Of a stretch of DNA of 64,000 nt, positions 4,196-38,182 are shown in pieces. Under the pieces are notes generated by a model. It was not told the DNA's origin and made no database searches. It saw only the letters and a program-made list of their open reading frames with translations. The stretch lies in contig OY776510.1 in assembly GCA_963675665.1 (NCBI GenBank), positions 704,001 to 768,000 of the forward strand, read 5' to 3'. The position numbers and the translations under genes were made by a program. The stretch's first letter is position 1; each line of letters starts with the position of its first letter. Source of the stretch: Spirochaetia bacterium. GTDB taxonomy: Bacteria > Spirochaetota > Spirochaetia > UBA9216.

Positions 4196-4496
4196 TGCTG
4201 TTTCTCCTGATTGAATAAAATCCCTCAGTCTCTTCAGACTGAACAATCTTGAATCCATTGTTAAAAAGCTTGTCATACACATTTTTCTTCATAGTTCCGT
4301 TGTAATACAGCTTCTTACCACACTTGTCCCCGTATTTCTGGGCGGAAAGCAGCAACTGAATACCCGACAGATCGATTTTTGTAATGCCGGAAAGATCCAC
4401 AACCGGGTTATCTGCTTCTTTTATCAAGTTTTTAAGCTGATCCGCCGCAGATTTGGCATTTGCAATTGTAAAATCAGTTTCAAAGTCTTTTTTCAT
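4185..4496 (-). CDS. STAS-domain protein, first gene of the che operon
   Basis: VDLSGITKIDLSGIQLLLS STAS motif; position directly before cheA. Confidence 0.85.
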   Translation of the reverse strand: MKKDFETDFTIANAKSAADQLKNLIKEADNPVVDLSGITKIDLSGIQLLLSAQKYGDKCGKKLYYNGTMKKNVYDKLFNNGFKIVQSEETEGFYSIRRNSSEL

Positions 4497-4620
4497 ACGA
4501 TCCTTCTCTATGAGGAAATAAGGAAACTCCAGGGAACCACTGATAAGCCAAATTCAAGGTGATTAGTAGTTCCATGCTTTAATTATTATTAAAAAACTAT
4601 TTAAAGTCAAAAAAGAAAAT

Positions 4621-4653
4621 AAAAAAATGCAGCACAGATACCTCCGTGCTGCA
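4621..4653 (-). terminator. Intrinsic terminator after the vWA gene
   Basis: TGCAGCAC/GTGCTGCA stem followed by a T-tract on the minus strand. Confidence 0.75.
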
Positions 4654-4668
4654 AAAAAACCCTGGTTA

Positions 4669-6690
4669 TCAGTACATCAGTTCTTTTGTTCTGTTCAGCA
4701 GTTCGATAAACTCCTGCCGGTAACCGTAACGATCATCTCCTTTTGCACCGGCTGCCCGGATAATAACATCATCTATATCAGCTTCGGGAATATATTCGGA
4801 ACCCCGCAGAATCATTCCCCATTCGGCAACCGCCGATGAAAAAAGGAAGTTGTTCGACGCTTCGGATAAAGGTTCCGGGCGGTTTTCTATAATTGTTTTA
4901 ACCAGAATGCTCTGTTCCTCATCCGGTCGTTTGTAACGGAATTTTATATCCGCCAGATCGGACGAGTCATTCGTACCCGGTATAATCTCGTATAATACGG
5001 TTATACTGTGCCCGGCACCGATTTCTCCCGCATCCTTTTTATCATCATCGAAATCTTCGGATGCCATCACCCGGTTTTCATACCCGACAAGACGATATGA
5101 ATCAACCGCGTCCGAATTAAAATCTATCTGTATTTTAACATCCTTTGCAATCGTCAGCAGGGTGCTGCTTAATTCCGTTACAAGAACCTTGTTCGCCTCG
5201 TTCAGTGTGTCTATGTATGCATAATTTCCGTTTCCGTTATCCGCGAGGGCTTCCATCCGCGCATCCTTGTAATTTCCCATACCGAGCCCGAGAACAGTCA
5301 GAAATATACCCTGGTCCCTGCGTTCTTCAATCATGTCCTTCAGTTCTGCTTCAGAACTCTGTCCGACATTGAAATCTCCGTCCGTAGCCAGAATAACCCT
5401 GTTGTTGCCGTCGGGAAAAAGGTTCCTTGCGGCAGTTTTATACGCCAGGTCAATTCCTTCGCCGCCGGCGGTTGATCCGCCCGCTTCAAGTTTGTCTAAT
5501 GCGCCGAGAATTTCAGCCTTCCGTGTTCCCGCTGTGGGCGGCAGAACAAGTCCTGCCGATCCGGCATAGGCAACAATGGACACTCGATCTTCCTGCCGCA
5601 GATTGTCAATCAGCAATGAAAGCGAATCTTTCAAAAGCGGCAGTTTGTTTTCATCCTGCATCGAACCCGAAGAATCAATAAGAAACACAATATTTGTGCG
5701 CGGCAGTTCTTCCCTGCTTACTTCATACCCCTGCAGACCTATATGCAGAAGCCGGTGGTCCCGGTTCCACGGACATACCGAAAGTTCGGTTGTAAAACTG
5801 AACGGGGTATTATCAGAAGGCTGAGGATAGTCATAATCAAAATAATTAATCAGCTCCTCAATTCGGACAGCATCCGGATCAGGCAGAAACCCGCTGTTAA
5901 TGAATCTTCTTGTATTCGAATATGACGCAGTATCCACATCAATTGAAAAAGTGGAGAGCGGCTCATCAGAAGTTCTGATAAAATCGTTTTCGGTTATGGG
6001 TTTATACTCCTCTCCTCCGAAAACCCCTTCAGTTTCATCATTCAAAGGCATTTCCAGCTCTTCAGAATCATATTCCATCTTTGCCGATGAAGCCACATCA
6101 AAAAACAAATCATCGGCTTCCGGCATTACAGGAGCTGCTGCAGACACCGAAGAGGCGGCGTCCCTTCGTTCAGAAGCCGAAACAATAACGCTGTCAGGGG
6201 GGGCCTGCGGTTTTTCGGATTTCTTATTCTCAGCCGGAACCGTTTGCGATAAAGCCTCAGTATGGGCCTCTTTACCGGGAGAAACAGCTTTTTCATCAGT
6301 CTTCGCAAAAAGTTCAACTGACTCTTCCCTGTAGGGTTCCTCGTAGGCCTGTTCAGAGGCAGTCATACGATCAGGACTCATCACATCTGCTATGAACCCC
6401 GGTCTGACTGCAAATGAAAGCGCTACAATGACTGCGGCAGCTATGCCGGCGGCGCTCACTACAGCTTTCCTGTGAATAATAAAAAATCCTGCCCGGGTTT
6501 TTTCTTCTTTTTTCTTTTCCGCCAGCCTTTCCAGTAATTCCGACCTCAGTCTTTCCTTGAAATCTTCATCATATTCCGCTTCAGGCTTCTGTTCGGCGAA
6601 TTTTTTAATTATTTTTTTCAACTCAGCCTCCTCCGATCGCAACGCAGGATCAAGTCTGTATAAATCTTCAAGAATCTTTTTAATATCCAT
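4669..6690 (-). CDS. Membrane-anchored YfbK-type von Willebrand factor A protein, putative anti-sigma/sensor
   Basis: N-terminal charged domain, one TM segment, low-complexity linker, STFSIDVDTASY, MIDAS DSSGSM, ATDGDFNVG; start ATG 6690 behind AAGGAG. Confidence 0.88.
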   Translation of the reverse strand: MDIKKILEDLYRLDPALRSEEAELKKIIKKFAEQKPEAEYDEDFKERLRSELLERLAEKKKEEKTRAGFFIIHRKAVVSAAGIAAAVIVALSFAVRPGFIADVMSPDRMTASEQAYEEPYREESVELFAKTDEKAVSPGKEAHTEALSQTVPAENKKSEKPQAPPDSVIVSASERRDAASSVSAAAPVMPEADDLFFDVASSAKMEYDSEELEMPLNDETEGVFGGEEYKPITENDFIRTSDEPLSTFSIDVDTASYSNTRRFINSGFLPDPDAVRIEELINYFDYDYPQPSDNTPFSFTTELSVCPWNRDHRLLHIGLQGYEVSREELPRTNIVFLIDSSGSMQDENKLPLLKDSLSLLIDNLRQEDRVSIVAYAGSAGLVLPPTAGTRKAEILGALDKLEAGGSTAGGEGIDLAYKTAARNLFPDGNNRVILATDGDFNVGQSSEAELKDMIEERRDQGIFLTVLGLGMGNYKDARMEALADNGNGNYAYIDTLNEANKVLVTELSSTLLTIAKDVKIQIDFNSDAVDSYRLVGYENRVMASEDFDDDKKDAGEIGAGHSITVLYEIIPGTNDSSDLADIKFRYKRPDEEQSILVKTIIENRPEPLSEASNNFLFSSAVAEWGMILRGSEYIPEADIDDVIIRAAGAKGDDRYGYRQEFIELLNRTKELMY

Positions 6691-16285: not shown

Positions 16286-16981
16286 ATGCTTCTAATCAGA
16301 AAAAGAATTATTATCATTCTGATGCTGATAACCACCGTTTCGATCATCCTGATTGCAGCAATGTCATACAACCGAATAATCGGCGCATATACTCAAAGCC
16401 CTGAAGATCTGAAATTTGAAGCTGAGCAATTTTTATTTATTAGTCTGCTTGTTGCCGCGGCAGTTCTCGGCTTTTTTACAGTCCTTCTGTATAAAAGCAG
16501 AAATATAAACGCGGAAATTGATAAACTGATAAAACAGGATAAACTTAACCCGGCCTCAACCGAAGCCGGTCTTCTGAAACTGGGAAAAACAGGAATAAAA
16601 CTTAACACTCTGTATAGACAAATAAACGAAATAAGCGATATGCGCGGACTTAAACTTGGCGCCGTTTCAAATGTCGCTGAATTTCTTTCGCTGAATATAC
16701 CGCAGCCTCTGCTGATAATTGATCTGAAAGGAACTGTCATTCAGGCAAGCAGCGGATATCTCAGGGAAAAGAATGTTCAGCGGTCCTCCGTTGTCGGCCG
16801 CAACATAAGCTCGCTTCTGAAAAGCATTAATATGAAAGCGGTCCTTTCCGTTCTGGAAAAAAACCATCTGCCGGCGGAAATTGATTTAAACGGAACCGGC
16901 TACCGCTGGAGTCCTCTTCACAACACAAACAACGAAATCAGCTATATAGCCGTTATTCAGATTTCTCAACCCTCGAACTGA
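16286..16981 (+). CDS. Two-TM membrane protein with C-terminal PAS-like domain
   Basis: Two hydrophobic segments; NIPQPLLIIDLKGTVIQAS...VVGRNISSLL PAS pattern. Confidence 0.65.
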   Translation: MLLIRKRIIIILMLITTVSIILIAAMSYNRIIGAYTQSPEDLKFEAEQFLFISLLVAAAVLGFFTVLLYKSRNINAEIDKLIKQDKLNPASTEAGLLKLGKTGIKLNTLYRQINEISDMRGLKLGAVSNVAEFLSLNIPQPLLIIDLKGTVIQASSGYLREKNVQRSSVVGRNISSLLKSINMKAVLSVLEKNHLPAEIDLNGTGYRWSPLHNTNNEISYIAVIQISQPSN

Positions 16982-18747
16982 AGGGTATAAAGGCTGCTGT
17001 AAAAGCCGTCCGCCGCCATCAGCTCTTCATGGGTGCCGCGCTCAATAATCCGGCCGGATCCCAGTACAAGAATTTTGTCCGCATCACGTATTGTAGACAA
17101 TCGGTGCGCTATTACAATTGCAGTACGGTCCTGCAGAAGATTTTTCAGACCGGCCTGAATGAGCTTCTCGGTTTCGGTATCAATACTTGCGGTGGCCTCG
17201 TCAAGAATCAGTACCGGAGGATCATGCGCTATCACGCGCGCAAACGCAATCAGCTGACGCTGCCCGCCCGACAGGTTCGCACCGCCCTCGGCAAGTATGT
17301 AATCAAGCCCCTTTTCGCCAGTGCCGGCAACCTTGTCCAGTACCGGCTTCAGCATTGCGGTTTCGGCGGCAGCAAGCAATTCGCTGTCGGTAAAATCACG
17401 CCCGAGGGCGATATTATCGCGGATTGTGCCCGAGAAAAGGAAAACATCCTGCTGTACAGCCTGTACTGTACGCCTGAGTTCCGCCAGAGGCAGCCGCCTT
17501 ACATCCCGTCCGTCAATCCGGATACAGCCGCTGTCGGCATCCCAGAAACGGGCGGCCAGATTGGCTACCGTTGTTTTTCCTGAACCTGTATAACCGACGA
17601 TGGCGACAGTTTCACCCCTTTTTACAGTGAGGTTTACCCCTTTCAAAACAGGTTCGCCTTCCTTGTATGAAAAATGTACATTCTCAAATTCGACGGCGCT
17701 CTCACTGTCGCCGCAAAATTCTCCGGATTGTTCTCCTTCAGAGGCATAATCATAAATACGTTCTTCGGTATCCAGCAGTTCAAACACACGTTCTCCGCCG
17801 GCCATCGCCGACTGCATTATAGTAAACTGCTCGGATATTTGCTGAAGCGGGCGGTAAAATTTTCTGACAAGATCAAGAAAAGCTATCAGCACGCCCAGAC
17901 TTACTGAACCGCCCGCGCTCAGCCCGGCGCCGAAATACAGAACGACCGCAAGCGAAACCGTACTGAAAAGGCTGATCAGCGGCCTGAATATTGCAAAAAC
18001 GTACATTTCCGAGTAATCGGCGGCGAGCAGGCTGTTATTCCGTTTTATAAACTGTGCGTCGGTCTGCACTTCACGGGCAAAGGCCTGAACAACCTTCATG
18101 CCCGATATCCTTTCGGACAAAAATGCATTGACTGCCGATATTTGCTCTCTGACGCGTCTGTAAGCGTTTCTGGCGCGTTTTCTGAATATAAGTGTAATTA
18201 CCAGAACCGGAGGCAGAGAAAACACCGTTAGAGCCCCCAATTTGAAATCAAGGTAAAAAAGCACGGCAATTACCCCAATCATCACAAGAAAGTTCTTTAT
18301 CAGCGTCATTATTACCGATGAAAAAAACTCGCTGATAGTTTCCACATCATTTGTTATCCGCGAAACCAGGCTGCCTATCGGTCTGCTTCCCAGAAATGCA
18401 AGCGACTGTCCGGCGGTATGTTCCAGAAGCTCAACCCGAAGATGCTTCATAATTCCCTGGCCGGCAAGCGACATCAGGTAAACCTGAACAAATGACGCGG
18501 CAAGTCCTGCAACAAGCAAAATTAGAATATACAGACAGTCGCGCATCAGTCCCGCAACCGAAGGGACATCCGAAAGCAGATGGTTGTCAATGCTGTTCTG
18601 AATTACCACCGGCACAAAAAGTTCTGACAGGATAAGAACAACCAGGGCCGCCGCCGAAACAATGACATACGTCCTGTACGGTTTCAGGTATGCAATGAGA
18701 CGCTTCATAATTACAGGGTCCCAGGTCCGGAGTATCTTATCTGCCAT
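16966..18747 (-). CDS. ABC exporter, fused TMD-NBD (MdlB/YheH-like half)
   Basis: GYTGSGKT, LSGGQRQ, LDEATA, IAHRLST; start MADKIL overlapping the partner gene. Confidence 0.92.
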   Translation of the reverse strand: MADKILRTWDPVIMKRLIAYLKPYRTYVIVSAAALVVLILSELFVPVVIQNSIDNHLLSDVPSVAGLMRDCLYILILLVAGLAASFVQVYLMSLAGQGIMKHLRVELLEHTAGQSLAFLGSRPIGSLVSRITNDVETISEFFSSVIMTLIKNFLVMIGVIAVLFYLDFKLGALTVFSLPPVLVITLIFRKRARNAYRRVREQISAVNAFLSERISGMKVVQAFAREVQTDAQFIKRNNSLLAADYSEMYVFAIFRPLISLFSTVSLAVVLYFGAGLSAGGSVSLGVLIAFLDLVRKFYRPLQQISEQFTIMQSAMAGGERVFELLDTEERIYDYASEGEQSGEFCGDSESAVEFENVHFSYKEGEPVLKGVNLTVKRGETVAIVGYTGSGKTTVANLAARFWDADSGCIRIDGRDVRRLPLAELRRTVQAVQQDVFLFSGTIRDNIALGRDFTDSELLAAAETAMLKPVLDKVAGTGEKGLDYILAEGGANLSGGQRQLIAFARVIAHDPPVLILDEATASIDTETEKLIQAGLKNLLQDRTAIVIAHRLSTIRDADKILVLGSGRIIERGTHEELMAADGFYSSLYTLQFEG

Positions 18748-20491
18748 CGTTTTCCACCTGCTGCAGTCTGTGAATATCCCGGTAAAGCCCGGAACGTTTA
18801 ATAAGTTCCCCGTGCGTACCGGAAGTGCTGATTGATCCGTTTTCAATAACAATCACAAAATCCGCAACCGAAAGTGTTGCCGTCCGGTTTGATATTAAAA
18901 TCGAAGTTCTGCCCTTCCTTTTCTCCAGGAACCGGCTGAGAATCCTTGATTCTGTTTCGGCATCCACTGCGGACAGACAGTCGTCAAAAATCAGAACTTC
19001 CGGATCGGTCAGGTACGCCCGGGATACGGCAATCCTCTGTTTCTGCCCCCCGCTCAGGCTGTGCCCCCTCTCGCCGACCATAGTGTCCCAGCCGAAGGGA
19101 AATTCCTTCAGATCACGGTCTATGGTTGAAAATTCTGCAGCCTCACGAATTTTATCATCATCTGCGGCATCCAGAGCAAAGCTGATATTTTCTTTTATTG
19201 TTTCAGAAAAAAGAAAACTGTCCTGCTGAACAAGACCCACTGTTTCTCTCAGATTCCTTAAATTGTAACTTCTGATATCACGACCGCCTATAAAAATGCT
19301 TTCAGGCGGCGGGTCATAAAGCCTGGGAATCAGGCTTACAAGGGTGCTTTTCCCCGAACCCGTCCTGCCGAATATTCCGACCGAGACGCCCGACGGGATT
19401 CTGAAGCTGATGCCTGAAAGCACGTTTTCGCTATCCCCTTCCCATTTGAAATTAAGATTACGGAATTCTATATCGCCTGAAGGTTTTTCAGCTGCTTTCT
19501 CATCGGAATTCTCAGGCGATCTGATGCCGGGTTCGGCATCAAGTATTTCACCAATCCGCGACAGCGACGCCGCACCGCGTTCAAGCCAGTTGATGGTAAA
19601 TCCGGCCCCCATCATCGGCCAGACAAGCAAATTCAGATAGCTTAAAATTGCCGCGAAATCACCCGGACTTAACTGCCCGTCAATTACCTGCACCCCGCCG
19701 AAACGAAGCAGCAGAAGGGTAGTTCCTCCGGCCAGAAAATTAATCAGCGGAAAGAAAAAACCCCATATACGTACCAGCGCCATGGTTCGCCTCATGTATT
19801 CTTCGTTGGATTCCGAAAATTTATCGACTGCATATTTTTCACATGAGAGCGTCTTGAAAACCCTTATTCCGGACAGGGTTTCCTGAACCAGGGCGCTTAA
19901 GGCTGAAAACCCCTCCTGGACCCGCTTTGTACGCCGGCCCAGCAAACGCCCCATTCCAAGCACCAGAAAAGTAAGAACCGGTAGCGGCAGAATTATCCAT
20001 CCTGCAATAGAAGGATAATTAAAAAACAGAATTACAAGGATAAAAGCGGCCATAAACACACCGTCGAACAGCGAAACAACCGCCATTCCGCATGCCATCC
20101 GTATAGCTCTCATATCATTTGTAAAGCGGGCCATGATGTCGCCGGTTTTCCTGGTTTCATAGTACGAAGGCTCCAGTGACAAGAGGTGTGAGAACATATT
20201 GGTTCTCAGTCCGTTTTCAATTCTGCGTGCTGTTCCGGTAATAAAATACCGCCAGCCGAAACGCCCGGCAGTAACCCCTGCAGCTGTAAGCACCATCAGC
20301 AGGCAGTAATGCAGAATTCGGGAGGTTTCCGGGCTTCCTGCAGCTATTATATCGACTGCGGATTTCGTCAGGCGGGGGACATACAACTGTCCTGCATCAG
20401 TTATTAACAGACATATAAGTCCGGGAATGTACATCGGAAGATATTTTAAAAACCAGGGAAGCAGTCTTCGGTATTCTTTCAGCATGGACAC
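18737..20491 (-). CDS. ABC exporter, fused TMD-NBD (MdlA/YheI-like half, degenerate site)
   Basis: GRTGSGKS, LSGGQKQR, FDDCLSAVD (Glu->Asp), ISNR (His->Asn). Confidence 0.92.
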   Translation of the reverse strand: MSMLKEYRRLLPWFLKYLPMYIPGLICLLITDAGQLYVPRLTKSAVDIIAAGSPETSRILHYCLLMVLTAAGVTAGRFGWRYFITGTARRIENGLRTNMFSHLLSLEPSYYETRKTGDIMARFTNDMRAIRMACGMAVVSLFDGVFMAAFILVILFFNYPSIAGWIILPLPVLTFLVLGMGRLLGRRTKRVQEGFSALSALVQETLSGIRVFKTLSCEKYAVDKFSESNEEYMRRTMALVRIWGFFFPLINFLAGGTTLLLLRFGGVQVIDGQLSPGDFAAILSYLNLLVWPMMGAGFTINWLERGAASLSRIGEILDAEPGIRSPENSDEKAAEKPSGDIEFRNLNFKWEGDSENVLSGISFRIPSGVSVGIFGRTGSGKSTLVSLIPRLYDPPPESIFIGGRDIRSYNLRNLRETVGLVQQDSFLFSETIKENISFALDAADDDKIREAAEFSTIDRDLKEFPFGWDTMVGERGHSLSGGQKQRIAVSRAYLTDPEVLIFDDCLSAVDAETESRILSRFLEKRKGRTSILISNRTATLSVADFVIVIENGSISTSGTHGELIKRSGLYRDIHRLQQVENDGR

Positions 20492-20556
20492 GCTATTACT
20501 TTACACTTTAACAGAAGGCTTGTCATCCGCAGGAATTACCCGTAAATAAAAACTTC

Positions 20557-20585
20557 TTGACGGGCGGGAACCGGCATTTTATAAC
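20557..20585 (+). promoter_or_regulatory. Sigma70 promoter TTGACG-N17-TATAAC, leaderless transcript
   Basis: Near-consensus hexamers; ATG 7 nt after the -10; no SD. Confidence 0.7.
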
Positions 20586-20592
20586 TATCATC

Positions 20593-21735
20593 ATGATTAT
20601 AAAAGAAGCTGAACTTTATCATCTGAAAATTCCGTTTAAACTGAATTTCAGCCATGCGAAGGCCGATCGGTTTTTTTCGGATTCCATAATCCTGCGGCTG
20701 ACCGGGAATTCCGGCACCGGTTACGGCGAAGCCGTTATAAGGGAATATGTTTCAGGAAATACGGACGGAGAATTAACTGCCGAATTCAACAGCCTGCTTG
20801 AACCTTTCAGAACTGACGAATTGAGCGCCGACAGGGTAATATCAATACTTGAAAATACAGATCCCGATCCCTCCCGGCTGCCTTTACTCTGCGCAGTTGA
20901 GACAGCCGTTCTGGATCTTCTGTGTAACGCAGAAAAAACCGATATTTACGGCCTTCTCGGATATGCCCCGATCAGAAATGAAATAATCTACGGCGGAACG
21001 CTCCCGCTGCTCCCGGAACAGGCAGCTGAAAAACTCCTTAAAGGCTATAAACAGTTGGGGATAACCAACCTGCGCATTAAAATCAACAGAGATCCCGAAT
21101 ACAATAACGGAATTTTATCTCTGGCCCGCCGGATTATGGGTGAGACATTCGATATTAAAGTTGATGCAAATGCCGGATGGAACCTCGTTGCGGCAGAAAG
21201 AAACCTGCCTCTGCTGAGAGAATGGGGCGTTAAAATAATAGAAGAGCCCTTCGGCCGTGAAGAAATCTCCTCCGGGACGCAACAGCTTGAGAATCTCATT
21301 GATTCGGGACTTGCCGAAGGTATGGTTTTCATGGCGGATGAGTCAGCGCTGACTGCCGCGGATATTTTACAGGCGGCGGAACAGAAAACCTTCGGAATGG
21401 TGAATATCCGCCTTGCCAAAAACGGGGGCATCCTGAAGGCACTTAAACTGGCGGAAACTGCCGCAAAATGCGGGATTCGCTATATGTCGGGCTGCCATGT
21501 AGGCGAAACGGGAATTCTGTCTGCAGCAGGCAGAGCAGTTGCATCCATTATGAAGCAGCCGGAATACGTCGACGGTTCATTCGACTCGCATCTTCTCAGC
21601 GGAAATATTACTGTTGATGATCTCAGCTTCGGCGAAGGCGGAAAAGCCGGTATAATAAGAAACTCCGGAATCGGTTTTAAAATCGATCAAAATAAACTTG
21701 AAGGATTAACCTGTGAAAGAAACAGATGTTTTTAA
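20593..21735 (+). CDS. Enolase-superfamily (muconate lactonising/epimerase subgroup) enzyme with atypical catalytic residues
   Basis: GYGEA, AVETAVLDL, metal ligands DAN/EEP/ADES; RIK and NIRLAKNGG in place of the usual Lys positions. Confidence 0.85.
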   Translation: MIIKEAELYHLKIPFKLNFSHAKADRFFSDSIILRLTGNSGTGYGEAVIREYVSGNTDGELTAEFNSLLEPFRTDELSADRVISILENTDPDPSRLPLLCAVETAVLDLLCNAEKTDIYGLLGYAPIRNEIIYGGTLPLLPEQAAEKLLKGYKQLGITNLRIKINRDPEYNNGILSLARRIMGETFDIKVDANAGWNLVAAERNLPLLREWGVKIIEEPFGREEISSGTQQLENLIDSGLAEGMVFMADESALTAADILQAAEQKTFGMVNIRLAKNGGILKALKLAETAAKCGIRYMSGCHVGETGILSAAGRAVASIMKQPEYVDGSFDSHLLSGNITVDDLSFGEGGKAGIIRNSGIGFKIDQNKLEGLTCERNRCF

Positions 21736-22528
21736 AAAATGGCTTGAAAAAAACAACCCCGAACTTGAAAAGTGCAGAGGGAAAATCCTTGCAGTGACCT
21801 TTTCCGCAGGTAAGGATTCATCCGTATGTCAGTACTTTCTTAATGAAGTAAAAGAAGAATATAATTTTGAACTAAAGGCGTTTCTGTGTGCTTTCCCGCA
21901 TCACCGGTATACCGATGATATCAATACCAGGCTGCAAAAATACTGGAAGGAAAAGGGAATAGATCTGACTGTTCAGCTGCCGGATGAGCCTGATGAAATA
22001 ATGTCGGAAAGTGCAAATCCCTGCCGCCCCTGCCAGAACGTCAGAAAGAAGTCGCTTCCCGGTATTTTTTCATATATTGAAAGACCTGTTTCAGAGGTAG
22101 TCATTGTTTCAGGGCACAGCCTTTGGGATATTGCATCATACGCGCTTAATCGGCATATTGCTGAACAGCTTGCCGACGCTCCGGAAAACAGTGAGACACT
22201 GTCCGAAAAGAGGCTGTTGGAAATTTCACAGCGGTTTTACCCTTTCTTTACCATGCCTGAAGGATACTCGGTATACAGACCGCTTCTTCATCTTAATCAA
22301 CCGGAAATCCACCGGTTCTGTATTGAAAATACAATTCCAGTTATTGAGACGGAATGCCGATATTCAGGTTGGAGGCCCAAAAATAACCTGTCCGAATTCT
22401 TTGAGAAGTTTGGTTATTCCTTTAACTATGAGAAAGTTTTTAATTTTGCGAGAAGAAATCTCAATATTATACCTCTCGAACAAATTACCGAAATTGAAAG
22501 CGGAGAATACCTCGGCAATCATTTCTGA
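21713..22528 (+). CDS. Divergent PP-loop ATP pyrophosphatase (TtcA-like)
   Basis: SAGKDS PP-loop, CRPC..VRKK, SGH, YRPLL; GTG start behind GAAGGA. Confidence 0.75.
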   Translation: MKETDVFKKWLEKNNPELEKCRGKILAVTFSAGKDSSVCQYFLNEVKEEYNFELKAFLCAFPHHRYTDDINTRLQKYWKEKGIDLTVQLPDEPDEIMSESANPCRPCQNVRKKSLPGIFSYIERPVSEVVIVSGHSLWDIASYALNRHIAEQLADAPENSETLSEKRLLEISQRFYPFFTMPEGYSVYRPLLHLNQPEIHRFCIENTIPVIETECRYSGWRPKNNLSEFFEKFGYSFNYEKVFNFARRNLNIIPLEQITEIESGEYLGNHF

Positions 22529-22549
22529 TATGTTATTCGGGGTCTGCCT

Positions 22550-24448
22550 GTGATCTCAAATCCGATATTAACAGATACGGACAGTATTCTGTTAAAAGGC
22601 CGTACGCCTCAGTTCCAGCAGAACCTGAATGAAGTTAACTGCGTTAACAGCAAAGCAATCTACCACTACGTAAGGCGCCATAAACCGGAAAAGCTTAAGG
22701 ATCTGTTTGTTAAACTTCCCGAACCATACAACAAGATAGAGAACATCGAAGCCTTTCTTACCGATGAAAACAACTGGGTTTCCTCCGAACTCATAACCGT
22801 GCTTTTCAGAAATGTCGTCAATATTTTTAAGGACCCAAGCATCCCGTTCCATATCGGAATGGAGACGATTACAACCCGTAATATAACCATGCTCCTGAGC
22901 TTTTTCCTTACCACCTTTTCGACGCCCCGAACGGTTTTAAAACGTCTTAACCAGATAAACCAGCAGTTTAATACGACAAAAATAATTGAAACAGTTTACG
23001 TATCAAGAAAACGCACGGTTGTCAGGCTGCACTGGAAAGAAGGGAGAATCCTGGATAAAAATGTCTGTCTTTATAATCAGGGCATATACGCAGCCATTCC
23101 TACCCTTTGGGGCCTGCCGCCTCAGGAGGTTTCCGAAACAGCATGTTATTTTGACGGGGCGCCGTACTGTCAGTACAATATTACCTTCCAGAAGCGCAAA
23201 ATCGGTAATTTCTTTTTAAGAAACAACAGGAAAACGAAGAAAGCAAAACTTCTTTTGGCGCTTGAAGAAATCGAAAGCGACAAATTACTGCTTAAAAAGA
23301 AAAATACGGAAGTTATCAAACTCAATATCGAACTCAGGGAAAAGGTTGAAAGACTTAAAGCTATAAATGAGGCATCCCGCCTTCTTGTTTCAATGGTTGA
23401 TACTGACGAAATACTGAAAACTACAATGGATATCATTGTTGATGTGCTGAAATTCGACCGCGCGCTTCTGATGCTAATCGATAAGGATAACAAGTATCTT
23501 GAATATGTCCACTCAACAGGCGCGGCGCTGGAAGAAGTAGATCAAAAACTTAAACCGTACCGTATTCCGTTGTCACGTACAAGCAATATATTAATTAAAA
23601 CAACCCTGAGCGGAACACCCTGGCTGGTAAAGGATGCAGAAAAAGCCGGTTTAAACCCGAACAACCTGATAATAAAGGATTTTAAACCGAATTCAATAGC
23701 TTTCTGCCCGCTGATAACATCAAAAGGCTCAATAGGAATTCTTGCAGCCGACAGAACCGAATCCGCCAGAATGATTACTGCAAAAGAACTCGAGCATCTT
23801 TCCATTTTCGTAAACAATATGGCAGCGACACTGTATAAAGCACAGCAGGATGAAGAACTGGAAAACAGTTATTTCAATACGGTAAAGGCACTTGTCAAAG
23901 CTATAGAAGAAAAGGATCTGTATACCCGCGGTCATTCGGAACGCGTCTCAAAACTTGCAGTCAGAATGGCCGAGGTTATGGGCCTTCCGAACACCGAAAT
24001 TGAAATTATCGGTATATGCAGCCTGCTTCATGATGTCGGCAAGATCGGAATACCCGAATCGATAGTTCGCAGCCCTAAACAACTGACGGCGGCCGAATAC
24101 AAGATAATACGAACACATCCCGAGAAAGGCTGTGAAATCGTCAGTCCGATAAGAAGGCTGAACGAACATTCTTCACTGATCAGACATCACCATGAACGGT
24201 ACGACGGAAAAGGTTATCCTGACGGACTGAAGCGGGACCAGATTCCGGTCAGTTCGATGATAATCTCGGTAGCGGATACATTCGACGCAATCACATCCTC
24301 AAGAGCCTACAGAAAGGGCCTTCCCAAGGAAGAGGCAGCCAGACGGATTCAGGAATCAAGGGGAACACAGTTTTCTCCCGAGGTAATTGATATCTTTATG
24401 AAAGTTTTTAATGAAGAGATAAGTAAAGACAACAGCTTCCTTGAATAA
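22550..24448 (+). CDS. V4R/H-NOX-like sensor-coiled coil-GAF-HD-GYP cyclic di-GMP phosphodiesterase
   Basis: ETACYFDGAPYCQY V4R-type motif; GAF; YTRGHSERV, LLHDVGKIG, HHERYDGKGYP, VADTFDA. Confidence 0.88.
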   Translation: MISNPILTDTDSILLKGRTPQFQQNLNEVNCVNSKAIYHYVRRHKPEKLKDLFVKLPEPYNKIENIEAFLTDENNWVSSELITVLFRNVVNIFKDPSIPFHIGMETITTRNITMLLSFFLTTFSTPRTVLKRLNQINQQFNTTKIIETVYVSRKRTVVRLHWKEGRILDKNVCLYNQGIYAAIPTLWGLPPQEVSETACYFDGAPYCQYNITFQKRKIGNFFLRNNRKTKKAKLLLALEEIESDKLLLKKKNTEVIKLNIELREKVERLKAINEASRLLVSMVDTDEILKTTMDIIVDVLKFDRALLMLIDKDNKYLEYVHSTGAALEEVDQKLKPYRIPLSRTSNILIKTTLSGTPWLVKDAEKAGLNPNNLIIKDFKPNSIAFCPLITSKGSIGILAADRTESARMITAKELEHLSIFVNNMAATLYKAQQDEELENSYFNTVKALVKAIEEKDLYTRGHSERVSKLAVRMAEVMGLPNTEIEIIGICSLLHDVGKIGIPESIVRSPKQLTAAEYKIIRTHPEKGCEIVSPIRRLNEHSSLIRHHHERYDGKGYPDGLKRDQIPVSSMIISVADTFDAITSSRAYRKGLPKEEAARRIQESRGTQFSPEVIDIFMKVFNEEISKDNSFLE

Positions 24449-24530
24449 ATGACTTCTTTTTCATGAACCTTTTTAATAAATAAATAAAAAAATACTTGCT
24501 CTGTTTCTTTTCTCGTGATGAAATATTCTC

Positions 24531-24590
24531 GGAGGGGCAGGCGAGGTCCCTCCTGCTCCTCAAAAAGGCCAACAATATTTAAGAGGAGTA
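24531..24590 (+). promoter_or_regulatory. Candidate bistable 5' leader with anti-SD
   Basis: Two mutually exclusive pairings; one pairs TGCTCCTC with the SD GAGGAGTA. Confidence 0.45.
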
Positions 24591-24595
24591 TTGCC

Positions 24596-25474
24596 ATGAA
24601 AAAAATCAATCTGTCCAGATTCTGTCAATCAAAACTGAATGTTATGATGTTCAAACGTTTTAATCCGCAGCTTTGTTTTAATTATATGCAGCTGCTCGGC
24701 AGGATATATTACGCGGTTAACCGAAAGGAACGTGAATTAATCAGTCAGAACATCCGGGATCTTCTTGAAGGAAAGGATGAGTCCTATATCAGGAAAACTA
24801 CAAAAGAAGCTTTCCGCGGAATATTCACCCATTACTTTGAAAAAATGTTTTCTGCTTACAAAAATTATCCGGACATAAAAAGATTCATCAACGAAAAATT
24901 CAAAATAGAAAATGAGCATCTGATCAGAAATGCGCTCAACGGAGGCAAGGGTGTTGTTATGGTAACCGCACACTGGGGCGCCGTCGAATTTATTCCCTGG
25001 CTGCTGGCTTTACGGGGGTATCCGTTGAGTGTAATCCTTGAATGTCAGACTCCTCTGCTGATGAAAGCACTGACTGATAAAACCAGGTTTGTCGATACCG
25101 AGCTCGTAATGGAAGAAAACTGCAATGTCCTGTTTACTGCATTCGACTGTCTGAAAAGAAACAGGGTTCTTATGACTGAATGTGATGAAGTTGATAAATG
25201 GCGCCGAAGAAAAAATCAGACAATCAGTCTCTTCGGAAAAACCCTTTATTTCGACAATACGCTTGATATCCTTGCCAAAAAAGCCGACTGCCCGGTAATA
25301 GGAACATTTCTTAAACGAAACCAGGACGGTACTTACACCCTTCTGCTTGAAGAGATAAAGAGGGAAGAGGGAACAGCGAAAAATGCGCTGGAACTCTGGC
25401 AAAAATATGTTTCGGAATCACCGGAACAGTGGTATCAATGGAAAAAATGGAAAAAAATGAAGGCTGTCAGTTAA
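24596..25474 (+). CDS. LpxL-like/lysophospholipid acyltransferase family protein
   Basis: GVVMVTAHWGAVE, ESPEQWYQW; start ATG 24596 behind GAGGAG. Confidence 0.85.
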   Translation: MKKINLSRFCQSKLNVMMFKRFNPQLCFNYMQLLGRIYYAVNRKERELISQNIRDLLEGKDESYIRKTTKEAFRGIFTHYFEKMFSAYKNYPDIKRFINEKFKIENEHLIRNALNGGKGVVMVTAHWGAVEFIPWLLALRGYPLSVILECQTPLLMKALTDKTRFVDTELVMEENCNVLFTAFDCLKRNRVLMTECDEVDKWRRRKNQTISLFGKTLYFDNTLDILAKKADCPVIGTFLKRNQDGTYTLLLEEIKREEGTAKNALELWQKYVSESPEQWYQWKKWKKMKAVS

Positions 25475-26235
25475 TCGTTCATTATCCTTTTTATTTCATC
25501 CTGAAGGGTTTCATACATAAAGCTGTGAATTCTGCTTCTGGTGTCGGCGGTGGTTGTCTTGTCAAAGAGCAATACGTATGTTGTACCGCCGGCATCAACC
25601 CGTGTTCCCATTATCGGGCCGGAAACACGGGCAATCTTTCCGCGCAGTTTGAGCTGAATATCCGAAAGAACTGAATGCACCTGAAGTACCTGTTCCTGGT
25701 CCAGCATAAATGCCATTCCGACCGAACTGATATCCCTGATGCGTCCGGATAAGAATTTTTCATTGATCTTGACATTCAGTTCGGTATTCTGCAGATTCCA
25801 GCAGTTGATACGAAGGTACTTACGCCTTCCCTTTGCTTCATTTGCATCAAGGGTCTTAAGGATTATCCGGCGGCTCTGTTCTAGTCCGAGTTTCAGTTTG
25901 ATATATCCGCAGGGTATCATTAAATCCATCAGATATGATTGTGCAAGAGCCTTGTCTTCATTATAGGTGAGCACCCCTATCTGGGCGGAATTGTCATCAG
26001 AGGACATCATCTCTTTTATATATTCCTGCCAACCCTTTGTATCAAGATTGTCGTCGATATTAACATAAACAATCGGTTCGTCAAAATCACAGATCACTGA
26101 ACGGAATTTTTTGTGATCTGAAACAAGATAAACAGCATATTCATTTGAAACAAGTTCGCGAACAAGATCCTGCTGAACAACCGAATGAGGATAAAGAAAA
26201 AATACTTTTTTAGCCATAAATGTATTGCGATCCAT
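25471..26235 (-). CDS. PilZ-domain c-di-GMP receptor
   Basis: RRKYLR and DISSVG motifs; GAGGTG RBS. Confidence 0.85.
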   Translation of the reverse strand: MDRNTFMAKKVFFLYPHSVVQQDLVRELVSNEYAVYLVSDHKKFRSVICDFDEPIVYVNIDDNLDTKGWQEYIKEMMSSDDNSAQIGVLTYNEDKALAQSYLMDLMIPCGYIKLKLGLEQSRRIILKTLDANEAKGRRKYLRINCWNLQNTELNVKINEKFLSGRIRDISSVGMAFMLDQEQVLQVHSVLSDIQLKLRGKIARVSGPIMGTRVDAGGTTYVLLFDKTTTADTRSRIHSFMYETLQDEIKRIMND

Positions 26236-26268
26236 TAACACCTCTTTATGTTATGATAAAATGATATT

Positions 26269-26832
26269 ATGATTATTTCTACCTTTCTTGGTAATAATGG
26301 CAAAAAATATGAGCTGACGCGGCACAACCTGCCGTGGATGATGCTTACTTATCTCAGTTTTTATCACAGTCTTCGCTGGTCTGAAAAATTCAAGGGTGAA
26401 TATTCCAAATTCGGAAATCCTGAACTCCTGATTCTCAAACCCCGTATATTTATGAATAACAGCGGGGAGAGCGTTGTTTCAGCCATGTCTTTCTTCAAGC
26501 TCAAACCTGCTGATCTTCTGGTAATTCATGATGATCTGGAACTTCCTTTCGGCACAGTTCAACTGAAAAAAGGCGGCGGAGCCGGAGGGCATAACGGGTT
26601 GCGCTCCATTATCAGGCAAACCGGCAGTTCGGACTTTTTCAGATTCAGGCTTGGCATATCGAGACCCCCGGCAGGACGCGATGTTTCATCCTGGGTACTC
26701 AGCAGGTTTTCTTCCGACGAAGAGGCAATTCTTCCTGATTACCTGAGAAAGGCAGCAGAACTGTACGAACAGGTACTCGCCGGAGGGCTGAAACCGGAAG
26801 CTAAAATAAAACTTTTTGAACCCCGGGATTGA
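26269..26832 (+). CDS. pth: Peptidyl-tRNA hydrolase
   Basis: LGN.G..Y..TRHN, KP.IFMNNSG, HDDLELPFG, GGHNGLRSI. Confidence 0.95.
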   Translation: MIISTFLGNNGKKYELTRHNLPWMMLTYLSFYHSLRWSEKFKGEYSKFGNPELLILKPRIFMNNSGESVVSAMSFFKLKPADLLVIHDDLELPFGTVQLKKGGGAGGHNGLRSIIRQTGSSDFFRFRLGISRPPAGRDVSSWVLSRFSSDEEAILPDYLRKAAELYEQVLAGGLKPEAKIKLFEPRD

Positions 26833-27526: not shown

Positions 27527-28171
27527 ATGAGCAGAACAATCCTTTTGACCAGCGGATCAAGATACAGCAGCTTAATAAACCGGAAAATGAAGCAGAGCGG
27601 CGAATCTGTTATACTGCTGACCGACGGAAACGAACCTCCGGCAGAGCAGGCTGTAAAAAATGAACTTCAGGTTGTATGGAATAAACGCTCTCCGCTTTCC
27701 GCCCGAAACGCCGTGCTGTCCGCGCTGAATTCATATAACGGCATTGACGAGGCAGTCCTTACTTATCAACCCGGCGGTTCAAATAAAACTTTTCACGAAA
27801 CCTCTTCGGCAGTATACGATCTTCAGGTAGACCGCTGGATAAAGGGATTCGGATATCTTCTAAAAGAACTTATCCAGCTTTTTCTGAAACAGCAGCACGG
27901 TCAAATATCTTTTATCCTTGATAAAAACGGAATGAAGGTTATGACGCCTCTTGAAAGCGCCATATTCAGCTATCTGAAAAATCTGATACAGAACCTTTCC
28001 GTCCTTTACCAGAATGAGCCGTTCAATATTCTCTGTTTCGAATCGGATACAAGCCGGAAAGACGATTTTTTGGATTTTTTCATTAAAACATCGGCGGAAA
28101 CAAAACATACACCGGGAAAGATTTATCGTTTCGTTGATAAAAAAGGCCTGTTTGACTTCACCAGAAATTAA
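27527..28171 (+). CDS. Hypothetical protein, possibly a degenerate SDR/Rossmann fold
   Basis: ORF with own promoter TTGACC-N17-TAAACT; weak TILLTSG / GIDEAVL pattern. Confidence 0.6.
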   Translation: MSRTILLTSGSRYSSLINRKMKQSGESVILLTDGNEPPAEQAVKNELQVVWNKRSPLSARNAVLSALNSYNGIDEAVLTYQPGGSNKTFHETSSAVYDLQVDRWIKGFGYLLKELIQLFLKQQHGQISFILDKNGMKVMTPLESAIFSYLKNLIQNLSVLYQNEPFNILCFESDTSRKDDFLDFFIKTSAETKHTPGKIYRFVDKKGLFDFTRN

Positions 28172-38050: not shown

Positions 38051-38178
38051 CCTCCTATAAAAGAGTCCCGCATGGATGCGGGTTATTACGGGAAGAAGTT
38101 TGTGAAACAAATCTGCTTTGCAGATTTGTTTTTCAAACTTCAAGATAAAATTGAACATGGATGTTCAATTTTATCATT
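38051..38178. repeat. Three-hairpin intergenic element, copy 2
   Basis: CCCGC-ATGGAT-GCGGG; GAAGTTTG...CTGC-TTT-GCAG...CAAACTTC; GATAAAATTGAAC-ATGGAT-GTTCAATTTTATC. Confidence 0.85.
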
Positions 38179-38182
38179 CCTC

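Follow-up and report, generated by a model that had tools for sequence, protein, structure and literature searches.

The stretch of DNA analysed here (64,000 nt of contig OY776510.1 from a Spirochaetia bacterium, called the window below) contains at positions 20557–25474 four genes, g1–g4, which encode three enzymes and a sensor. The genes are clustered beyond chance: of 30 loci found through g2, 16 contain all four families. The interpretation to which we give about an even chance is a conserved four-gene module for ligand metabolism and sensing, in which the three enzymes make or convert the ligand of the sensor. No description of the module or of sensors combining V4R and GAF domains was found in the published literature, for which coverage of subscription journals was thin. 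The genes are as follows.

20593..21735, + strand: g1, enolase-superfamily enzyme of the muconate lactonizing enzyme (MLE) subgroup, 380 aa (MR_MLE_C)
21713..22528, + strand: g2, PP-loop ATP pyrophosphatase, TtuA/NcsA/TtcA-like, 271 aa (PF01171 and fold)
22550..24448, + strand: g3, soluble sensor and predicted phosphodiesterase, 632 aa (Pfam GAF and HD_5; AlphaFold2 (AF2) and Foldseek for the N-terminus)
24596..25474, + strand: g4, soluble LpxL/LpxM-like acyltransferase, 292 aa (PF03279; HX4E motif as AHWGAVE)

The layout agrees with a preliminary description made from the sequence alone. According to the listing of open reading frames (ORFs), the four genes are co-directional on the + strand with − strand genes on both sides, the end of g1 (21735) overlaps the start of g2 (21713) by 23 nt, and g3 begins (22550) 21 nt after the end of g2 (22528). 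All four families named in that description are likewise confirmed by the Pfam scan and the folds.

Loci were fetched with a profile of 21 aligned g2 relatives, taking one genome per species. Among the 44 stretches that matched the g2 pattern, 30 encode a g2 relative, and these are the 30 loci considered below; gene presence was scored by blastp of the window proteins against all locus ORFs (E ≤ 1e-5). Relatives of g1 are present in 22 loci, the N-terminal domain of g3 in 17, and g4 in 17. All four families occur within 7.5 kb in 16 loci (L001–L012, L015, L021, L023, and L030), so the preliminary description passes, on this point, the test that it had set itself. The complete loci are drawn from two phyla, Spirochaetota and Desulfobacterota-type metagenome-assembled genomes (MAGs). 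The window order g1-g2-g3-g4 is kept in the 12 spirochaete loci L001–L012, while L021, L023, and L030, which are Desulfobacterota-type, have the order g4-sensor-g1-g2. As for L015, the fourth Desulfobacterota-type locus, g4 lies on the opposite strand, with the sensor on the + strand, two unrelated genes, and then g1-g2. The contig of L020 begins inside g2 and has both g3 and g4. In 17 of the 20 cases in which g1 and g2 stand in tandem, the beginning of g2 lies within the end of g1. According to all-against-all clustering, no real family beyond the core four is present in at least 12 loci, the other big clusters being antisense shadow ORFs. The flanks of the module differ between clades, and the genes for a PilZ-domain protein, pth, and a nuclease are common to L001–L004 only.

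Single loci carry additional genes inside or next to the module, namely an M28 peptidase gene between the sensor and g4 (L010, 12719–14098), a B12-binding radical SAM gene between g4 and the sensor (L030, 5232–6803), and an M20 peptidase gene downstream of the module (L023, 12234–13475). In L030 the g4 homologue (4208–5202) is divided between two overlapping ORFs (4208–4534 and 4471–5202), likely by a frameshift or a MAG assembly error.

The sensor g3 consists of the following parts.

residues 28–225 (22631..23224, + strand): V4R/H-NOX-fold domain (AF2, Foldseek)
residues 226–279 (23225..23386, + strand): long helix (AF2)
residues 284–427 (23399..23830, + strand): GAF domain (Pfam)
residues 447–612 (23888..24385, + strand): HD-GYP domain (HD_5, Pfam)

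The HD_5 match of g3 has E = 3.3e-37, and the motifs LHDVGK and HHHERYDGKGYP are present, which points to a predicted phosphodiesterase of cyclic diguanylate (c-di-GMP). The ~280 residues ahead of the GAF domain have no Pfam match other than a weak one to V4R. The AF2 model of residues 1–280, computed with an alignment of 16 homologues, has a pLDDT (predicted local distance difference test) of 73, with the core mostly at ~80–95 and a dip to 60–70 at residues 111–140. The top 45 Foldseek matches of this model are H-NOX domains (E from 7e-6, target-normalised TM-score, i.e. template modelling score, 0.6–0.76), followed by PoxR (5frz/5fru) and DmpR (6iy8) with E of 2–4e-3, and a TRAPP subunit. 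The N-terminus had been called V4R/H-NOX-like from the sequence, and as a fold this call is correct. When the profile of the sensor domain was searched against the sequences of solved structures, only coiled-coil noise appeared (E > 1).

Residues C173, E196, C199, and C207 are invariant among the 16 g3 homologues, as is C31, which lies outside the zinc site. The spacing C173-x25-C199-x7-C207 (steps of 26 and 8) equals the zinc-ligand spacing of MopR and DmpR, whose ligands are given as C155, C181, and C189 (PMC9556785) and as Cys151, Glu172, Cys177, and Cys185 (PMC7264223), respectively, in the accessible parts of the two papers. Both the modelled fold and the Cys/Glu site are those of V4R domains, and metal binding is predicted. 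A heme H-NOX was considered as well and rejected: a heme sensor is unlikely because no His is invariant among the 16 homologues (H161 sits in a strand and is Ile in L015) and the heme-propionate motif is not conserved. In H-NOX proteins this motif is Y-x-S-x-R, and its Y, S, and R positions are not conserved in the sensor homologues.

For the preliminary description, a sensor domain fused to different outputs in other genomes would count as support, and such fusions do occur. The sensor domain and GAF are joined to HisKA and HATPase_c in L021, L023, and L030, and to PAS, kinase, and receiver domains in L015. In three of these loci (L015, L021, and L030) the module has sigma-54 response regulators as neighbours; in L023 the neighbour is a receiver-adenylate cyclase. 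A scan of seven deltaproteobacterial loci for sigma-54 −24/−12 sites, however, found none ahead of the module genes, so autoregulation via the neighbouring sigma-54 regulators is unsupported. Among 39 close relatives of g3, GAF and HD-GYP are combined in 37, and GAF and a kinase in 2. The earlier proposal that the sensor tunes c-di-GMP may thus hold for the HD-GYP outputs of spirochaetes but not for the deltaproteobacterial versions. Because the latter signal by phosphorelay, the enzymes are tied to the V4R and GAF input rather than to c-di-GMP as such.

The sensor profile was also compared with 1.84 billion representatives, giving 1319 matches at E ≤ 1e-3, 588 at E ≤ 1e-10, and 67 at E ≤ 1e-30. 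Out of 85 proteins picked among the best 150 of the 1319 matches, 77 full-length proteins were scanned, with the following numbers of proteins per Pfam domain.

HATPase_c 49, HisKA 33, Receiver 24, PAS 23, GAF 21
HD_5 7, V4R 7, GGDEF 5, Cyclase 3

The seven V4R matches are those at E ≤ 1e-5 (best 6.5e-10), and the zinc-site residues are at least 90% conserved in the 77 relatives. Because the zinc site is kept, profile matches are numerous, and V4R hits are few, the sensor domain is, judging by its sequence, a divergent V4R-type input that is much commoner than Pfam shows. Four relatives (P0200, P0169, P0229, and P0178) carry, as a fusion on the N-terminal side of the sensor domain, a domain resembling the N-acyl amino acid synthase FeeM (E = 8e-8, 3e-5, 3e-12, and 1e-5, respectively). 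Two of these four fusions also have weak autoinducer-synthase matches, and Pfam kinase domains are present in three, although only marginally in P0178.

Regarding g1, MR_MLE_C covers the barrel at residues 158–379 with E = 4.4e-26. The closest solved relative is the dipeptide epimerase 3jva (E = 1.2e-21), whose alignment with g1 pairs LKIKVG with lrikin and NIKLMKCGG with nirlakngg. The metal ligands D191, E217, and D249 correspond in this alignment to the 3jva motifs DAN, EQP, and ADES, respectively; among 20 homologues the first two do not vary, and the third is kept at 90% or more. The KxK motif is replaced by R161-x-K163, which is invariant in all 20 homologues, and the strand-6 (β6) Lys by Arg (R273) in 19 of 20, with Lys only in L017. 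The combination of RxK and a β6 Arg argues against a two-base racemase, and g1 may instead perform one-base chemistry on a carboxylate, i.e. exchange, elimination, or cyclisation. In NCBIfam g1 scores below every curated cut-off, including those of o-succinylbenzoate synthase (OSBS) and N-succinylamino acid racemase (NSAR). Its best match is the N-acetyl-D-Glu racemase DgcA (82.8 vs 400), and with 54 bits against the cut-off of 343 for L-Ala-D/L-Glu epimerase it falls far short of the Ala-Glu epimerase that would have made it a housekeeping gene. Database-atlas look-ups of g1 and g2 returned unnamed or generic clusters only, mostly from Thermodesulfobacteriota.

The PP-loop gene g2 barely passes the PF01171 cut-off (28.4 bits vs 27). 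In its PP-loop, SAGKDSS, residues S31, G33, D35, S36, and S37 are invariant among 21 sequences, and the family also keeps PCRPCQ and SGHSLWD. Residues C104 and C107 are invariant in the same sequences and C215 is at least 90% conserved; no conserved Cys pairs exist beyond these three. The family profile matches NcsA 6scy with E = 1.2e-4, aligning the PP-loop, PCxxC, and GHxLxD; C104 and C107 are aligned with PCSFC of NcsA, and C215 is aligned to no structure. The AF2 model (pLDDT 93) gives a Foldseek order of NcsA, TtuA, TilS, and then [4Fe-4S]-LarE, with E = 1.2e-9 for NcsA 6scy, 3.5e-9 to 1.1e-8 for TtuA 5mkp/5mkq, and TM ~0.6. In NCBIfam the only match is TilS_N (37.3 vs 93.6) and none is to TtcA, which argues against a housekeeping TtcA as well. 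Few relatives of g2 exist: a search of 5.8 billion clusters yields 55, of which 6 are less than 60% identical to a locus g2. By analogy, g2 would adenylate a carbonyl and then insert sulfur via a three-Cys [4Fe-4S] site. A precedent outside tRNA is CtaC of closthioamide biosynthesis, a TtcA/TtuA-like Fe-S enzyme with CxxC and a third Cys that thioamidates a non-tRNA substrate, according to the accessible part of PMC6772006.

As for g4, PF03279 (Lip_A_acyltrans) is matched with 41.7 bits against a cut-off of 22.3. The closest solved relative is LpxM 5kn7 (E = 1.1e-5), with HFGTWE aligned with HWGAVE. Nevertheless, g4 stays below the curated cut-off for a lipid A enzyme (42 vs 248 bits for the lauroyl acyltransferase NF006270), and no lipid A genes are present among the 11 genes scanned around the module. 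It also has no membrane anchor, its highest 19-residue hydropathy being 1.46, at the active-site strand. In general, the Kyte-Doolittle mean stays below 1.6 in every 19-residue stretch of the five proteins examined; with no hydrophobic stretch of transmembrane strength, all five look soluble.

Taken as a pathway, the module would work as follows. The acyltransferase g4 would contribute to making or converting the ligand, g1 would take an α-proton from a carboxylate, with no second racemase base, and g2 would adenylate a carbonyl and swap its oxygen for sulfur at the three-Cys [4Fe-4S] site. The product or substrate would be read by the sensor, in which a coiled coil connects a zinc-site V4R/H-NOX-fold domain with a GAF domain, and an output domain follows. 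In the window and in other spirochaetes, ligand binding would set the HD-GYP activity and thereby the c-di-GMP level, whereas a histidine kinase would be driven by this input in Desulfobacterota-type genomes. The ligand is most likely hydrophobic and may be acylated and amino-acid-like, perhaps thio-modified. The acylated amino-acid-like ligand is only a guess, albeit our best one, suggested by the FeeM fusions, the neighbouring peptidase and radical SAM genes, the substrates known for the MLE subgroup (N-acylated amino acids and dipeptides), and the pockets of V4R domains, which bind small hydrophobic molecules.

Several observations weigh against this interpretation. Both g3 and g4 are missing from 13 of the 30 loci. 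Seven of these (L013, L014, L016, L018, L022, L024, and L026) are undecidable, with a contig that is short or ends early; L017, however, has g1 and g2 with no g3 or g4 within 10 kb on either side, L019 (a 7.7-kb contig) has g2 alone, and L025 and L027–L029 contain distant g2 paralogues (30–36% identity) in other contexts. The numbers of g4 are also out of proportion: there are 320 g4-like matches, far more than relatives of g2 or g3, and of the 120 listed, 64 share less than 60% identity with even the nearest of the 16 g4 linked to the module. A quick tree of these 16 and every second listed match (60 of 120) has a clade of 24 of the 60 sampled matches with no module-linked member, although L015, L021, and L023 sit on long branches and their position in it is uncertain. 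In a manual comparison, 23 of 33 g4 matches on contigs of at least 20 kb have no g2 or g3 match on a contig of equal size. These numbers suggest that g4 may have been drawn into the module from a broader family of spirochaete acyltransferases, and may be a more general lipid enzyme that also occurs elsewhere. Furthermore, the Pfam V4R match of g3 is weak (E = 0.013, 16 bits vs 31), and the third Cys of g2 is assigned from its conservation. In L015 and L017 the module has genes for FadL/TodX channels as neighbours, which fit uptake as well as export. Finally, the c-di-GMP part is weakened by the phosphorelay output of the deltaproteobacterial loci and by the restriction of the PilZ neighbour to L001–L004.

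In a different explanation, a hydrophobic or aromatic compound from outside is sensed, the enzymes feed it or a derivative (e.g. an N-acyl or D-amino acid) into metabolism, and the output changes either behaviour, through c-di-GMP, or transcription. An acyltransferase, an enolase-superfamily racemase, and a hydrolase together form the known logic of D-to-L amino acid salvage, to which the DgcA match of g1, though at 82.8 vs 400, and the peptidases of L010 and L023 would correspond. The FadL/TodX-type outer-membrane channels suit it as well, and known V4R sensors bind aromatic substrates of catabolic pathways, according to the accessible part of PMC7264223. On the other hand, clustering of the 30 loci yields no recurring catabolic genes beside the module, the β6 Lys needed by a two-base racemase is Arg in 19 of 20 g1 homologues, no role in catabolism is evident for a thiolase-like PP-loop enzyme, the channels are found in two loci only, and each peptidase in one. 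Overall, we consider an outside compound unlikely, yet worth keeping in mind.

A bolder form of the module interpretation is that the product is a new class of signal, acyl-amino-acid-like with a thioamide or thioacid group, which an LPLAT (lysophospholipid acyltransferase-type) acyltransferase, a one-base enolase-superfamily enzyme, and a [4Fe-4S] PP-loop sulfur insertase would build. Its dedicated cytoplasmic zinc-V4R/GAF receptor would act on c-di-GMP turnover in spirochaetes, whereas in sulfate-reducer lineages it would feed into sigma-54 two-component control. We regard this as quite unlikely. If true, the sensor family (1319 representatives at E ≤ 1e-3, some of them FeeM-fused) would be a widespread class of lipo-amino-acid receptors, and a new chemistry would enter the communication of anaerobic sediment bacteria.

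Alternatively, the enzymes might serve the sensor itself by supplying a V4R/GAF cofactor or a covalent modification, e.g. acylation of the invariant Cys31, while the true stimulus (redox state, a gas, or a metal) lies elsewhere. All 17 sensor loci have g4 and 16 of 17 also have g1 (the contig of L020 begins inside g2), C31 is an invariant fourth Cys outside the zinc site, and the fold is shared with TRAPP subunits according to Foldseek. However, the conservation of C31 does not reach 90% when the 77 wider relatives are considered, no precedent for such a system was found, and the FeeM-sensor fusions fit a free small-molecule ligand better, which leaves sensor maturation very unlikely.

Chance adjacency of a housekeeping TtcA, an Ala-Glu epimerase, and a lipid A acyltransferase (LpxL) to an unrelated HD-GYP gene is hardly credible and was rejected on the curated cut-offs, which are all missed by wide margins, and on distribution: although public names are generic (TilS/MesJ for g2 relatives, Kdo2-lipid IVA lauroyltransferase for g4 relatives) and g4-like genes seem to occur without the other three, the set recurs in 16 of 30 loci from two phyla in rearranged order and with unrelated flanks, and 55 g2 relatives in 5.8 billion clusters are far too few for a housekeeping tRNA role.

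Regarding the ligand-metabolism and sensing module, the circuit outlined in the preliminary description therefore holds up in part, namely in its co-occurrence, output swap, non-housekeeping enzymes, and sensor fold. The synthesis of a signal, as opposed to its consumption or conversion, the acylated or lipid nature of the molecule, and the quorum-sensing-like character are conjectural, the link is not to c-di-GMP as such, and the PilZ gene is probably inherited synteny. The features around the module are as follows.

20557..20585, + strand: putative promoter TTGACG-17 nt-TATAAC, within the 101-nt divergent intergenic region (by eye)
25471..26241, − strand: PilZ-domain protein, converging on g4 with a 4-nt overlap
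16966..20491, − strand: pair of genes for MsbA-like ATP-binding cassette (ABC) half-transporters, divergent from g1 (ABC_membrane and ABC_tran)

The start of g1 is most likely ATG 20593 and is moved here from 20557, because the alignment of homologues begins at MIIKEAEL. With this change the TTG at 20557 becomes part of a −35-like hexamer, and the −10-like hexamer ends 7 nt ahead of the ATG. The promoter that had been assigned to the module is thus readable by eye, but it is absent from the list of the consensus promoter scan, which is uninformative, with 20 promoter-like sites where 11.6 would be expected and not one of them at the position proposed for g1; terminator-like sites are equally uninformative, occurring in the expected number. 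The start of g4 is most likely ATG 24596, which is preceded by the ribosome-binding site AAGAGGAG and leaves an AT-rich gap of 147 nt between g3 and g4.

The PilZ gene does converge on the end of the module, as had been described. Its Pfam score of 22.5 bits is exactly the cut-off, RxxxR and DxSxxG are readable in the translation, and the ~130 N-terminal residues have no family match. The protein is a possible c-di-GMP receptor with a weak tie to the module; being kept beside g4 in the four closest loci only, it is probably inherited synteny. Further downstream lie pth and then a bifunctional-nuclease/UVR gene, followed by a 214-aa ORF (27527–28171, + strand) that belongs to no Pfam or NCBIfam family. 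The ABC pair scores below the curated cut-offs of MsbA/SmdAB-like families and adjoins the module in L001–L004 and L012 only (5 of 30 loci). It is possibly an exporter with an uncertain tie to the module, and its presence in five spirochaete loci is compatible with either uptake or export. Both the PilZ gene and the ABC pair were rejected as core parts, being kept in 4 and 5 of 30 loci, respectively.

A permissive Rfam scan of 20300–26400 gave no match, i.e. no riboswitch or leader RNA. The sole match of the Rfam gathering scan of the window is a TD-2 RNA distant from the module (38066–38179, + strand; 49.2 bits vs gathering score 48.7), a small RNA family first described in Treponema, which, like the relatives of the module genes, fits a spirochaete origin. 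The window contains no tRNA according to a tRNA scan, and g1, g2, and the sensor domain each occur in it only once according to an HMM (hidden Markov model) search. The segment 62001–64000 has a G+C content of 0.341, compared with 0.41–0.49 elsewhere in the window, and may be foreign or intergenic-rich.

The distant g2 paralogues stand in two kinds of surroundings. The one in L025 (6191–13789, chromosome CP070768.1, which also carries L023) is a second g2 paralogue with 34% identity. It lies among sulfur and cofactor genes, namely HcyBio (homocysteine biosynthesis), NIL/4Fe-4S, CBS, FmdE, MobA, and MoeA, and has no g1, g3, or g4. The other three loci contain a variant module. L027 (9971–15413) encodes, in this order, the PP-loop enzyme, a methyltransferase, a ~400-aa protein, and a distant V4R-like sensor with GAF, kinase, and receiver domains (A2 profile, E ~1e-10); L028 (3–5524) has the same PP-loop enzyme, ~400-aa protein, and sensor. 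In L029 (9947–13243) a frameshift-split PP-loop gene is accompanied by genes for a methyltransferase and a PilZ protein, with transposase genes upstream. The ~400-aa protein of L027 and L028 was rejected as a relative of g1, with an hhalign probability of 0.7% against the g1 profile and no Pfam match.

To our knowledge, the input has been established for a handful of HD-GYP proteins at most, and the same is true of spirochaete c-di-GMP enzymes. In the present case, three enzymes encoded next to the sensor should lead toward the ligand, which makes the input of an HD-GYP protein directly testable. A small TtuA/NcsA-like Fe-S PP-loop family gains a likely non-tRNA role, and an enolase-superfamily family is flagged in which the second catalytic Lys is replaced by Arg. 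In addition, kinases, cyclases, GGDEF, and HD-GYP proteins commonly carry at their N-terminus, as the input, a zinc-site V4R/H-NOX-fold domain that Pfam largely misses.

In comparison with known systems, the parts of the module resemble established families while failing, at the level of sequence, the membership tests of their characterised members. The g3 domain is similar to the V4R domains of DmpR, MopR, PoxR, and XylR in its fold, the Cys-x25-Cys-x7-Cys spacing, and a nearby Glu, and its long helix leading to the GAF domain recalls the B-linker that follows the V4R domain of DmpR. The DmpR-type domain, however, is fused to a sigma-54 AAA+ activator rather than to GAF and HD-GYP or a kinase, and by sequence the g3 domain matches no solved structure and Pfam V4R only at E = 0.013. 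The best structural matches are to H-NOX, a group of proteins that commonly control c-di-GMP enzymes and kinases; in contrast to them, the g3 domain has no invariant His and carries a Cys/Glu zinc site instead.

Among PP-loop enzymes, g2 shares the PP-loop, PCxxC, GHxLxD, and the fold with TtuA/NcsA/TtcA and their small-molecule relatives CtaC and [4Fe-4S]-LarE, and its conserved C215 may correspond to their third Cys. TtuA and NcsA carry zinc fingers, which g2 lacks because only three of its Cys are conserved, and the TtcA model is unmatched; unlike TtuA, NcsA, and TtcA, g2 is paired with an enolase-superfamily gene in the module loci. Similarly, g1 has the barrel, D191/E217/D249, and K163 in common with MLE enzymes (dipeptide epimerase, NSAR/OSBS, and muconate cycloisomerase), but it has RxK for KxK and Arg for the β6 Lys (19 of 20) and misses all family cut-offs. 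With LpxL and LpxM, g4 shares the Pfam family and the HX4E dyad seen in the alignment with LpxM 5kn7. It differs from them in its score (42 vs 248 bits), in the absence of the N-terminal membrane anchor that LpxL has, and in having no lipid A genes nearby.

As a whole, the arrangement is comparable in its gene layout with LuxI/LuxR, PhcB/PhcS, CqsA/CqsS, and RpfF/RpfC, in which genes of small-molecule enzymes likewise stand beside a dedicated sensor with a swappable output. None of the enzyme or receptor families of these pairs occurs in the module; the likeness to synthase-receptor pairs extends to the four sensor relatives that are fused to a FeeM-like synthase.

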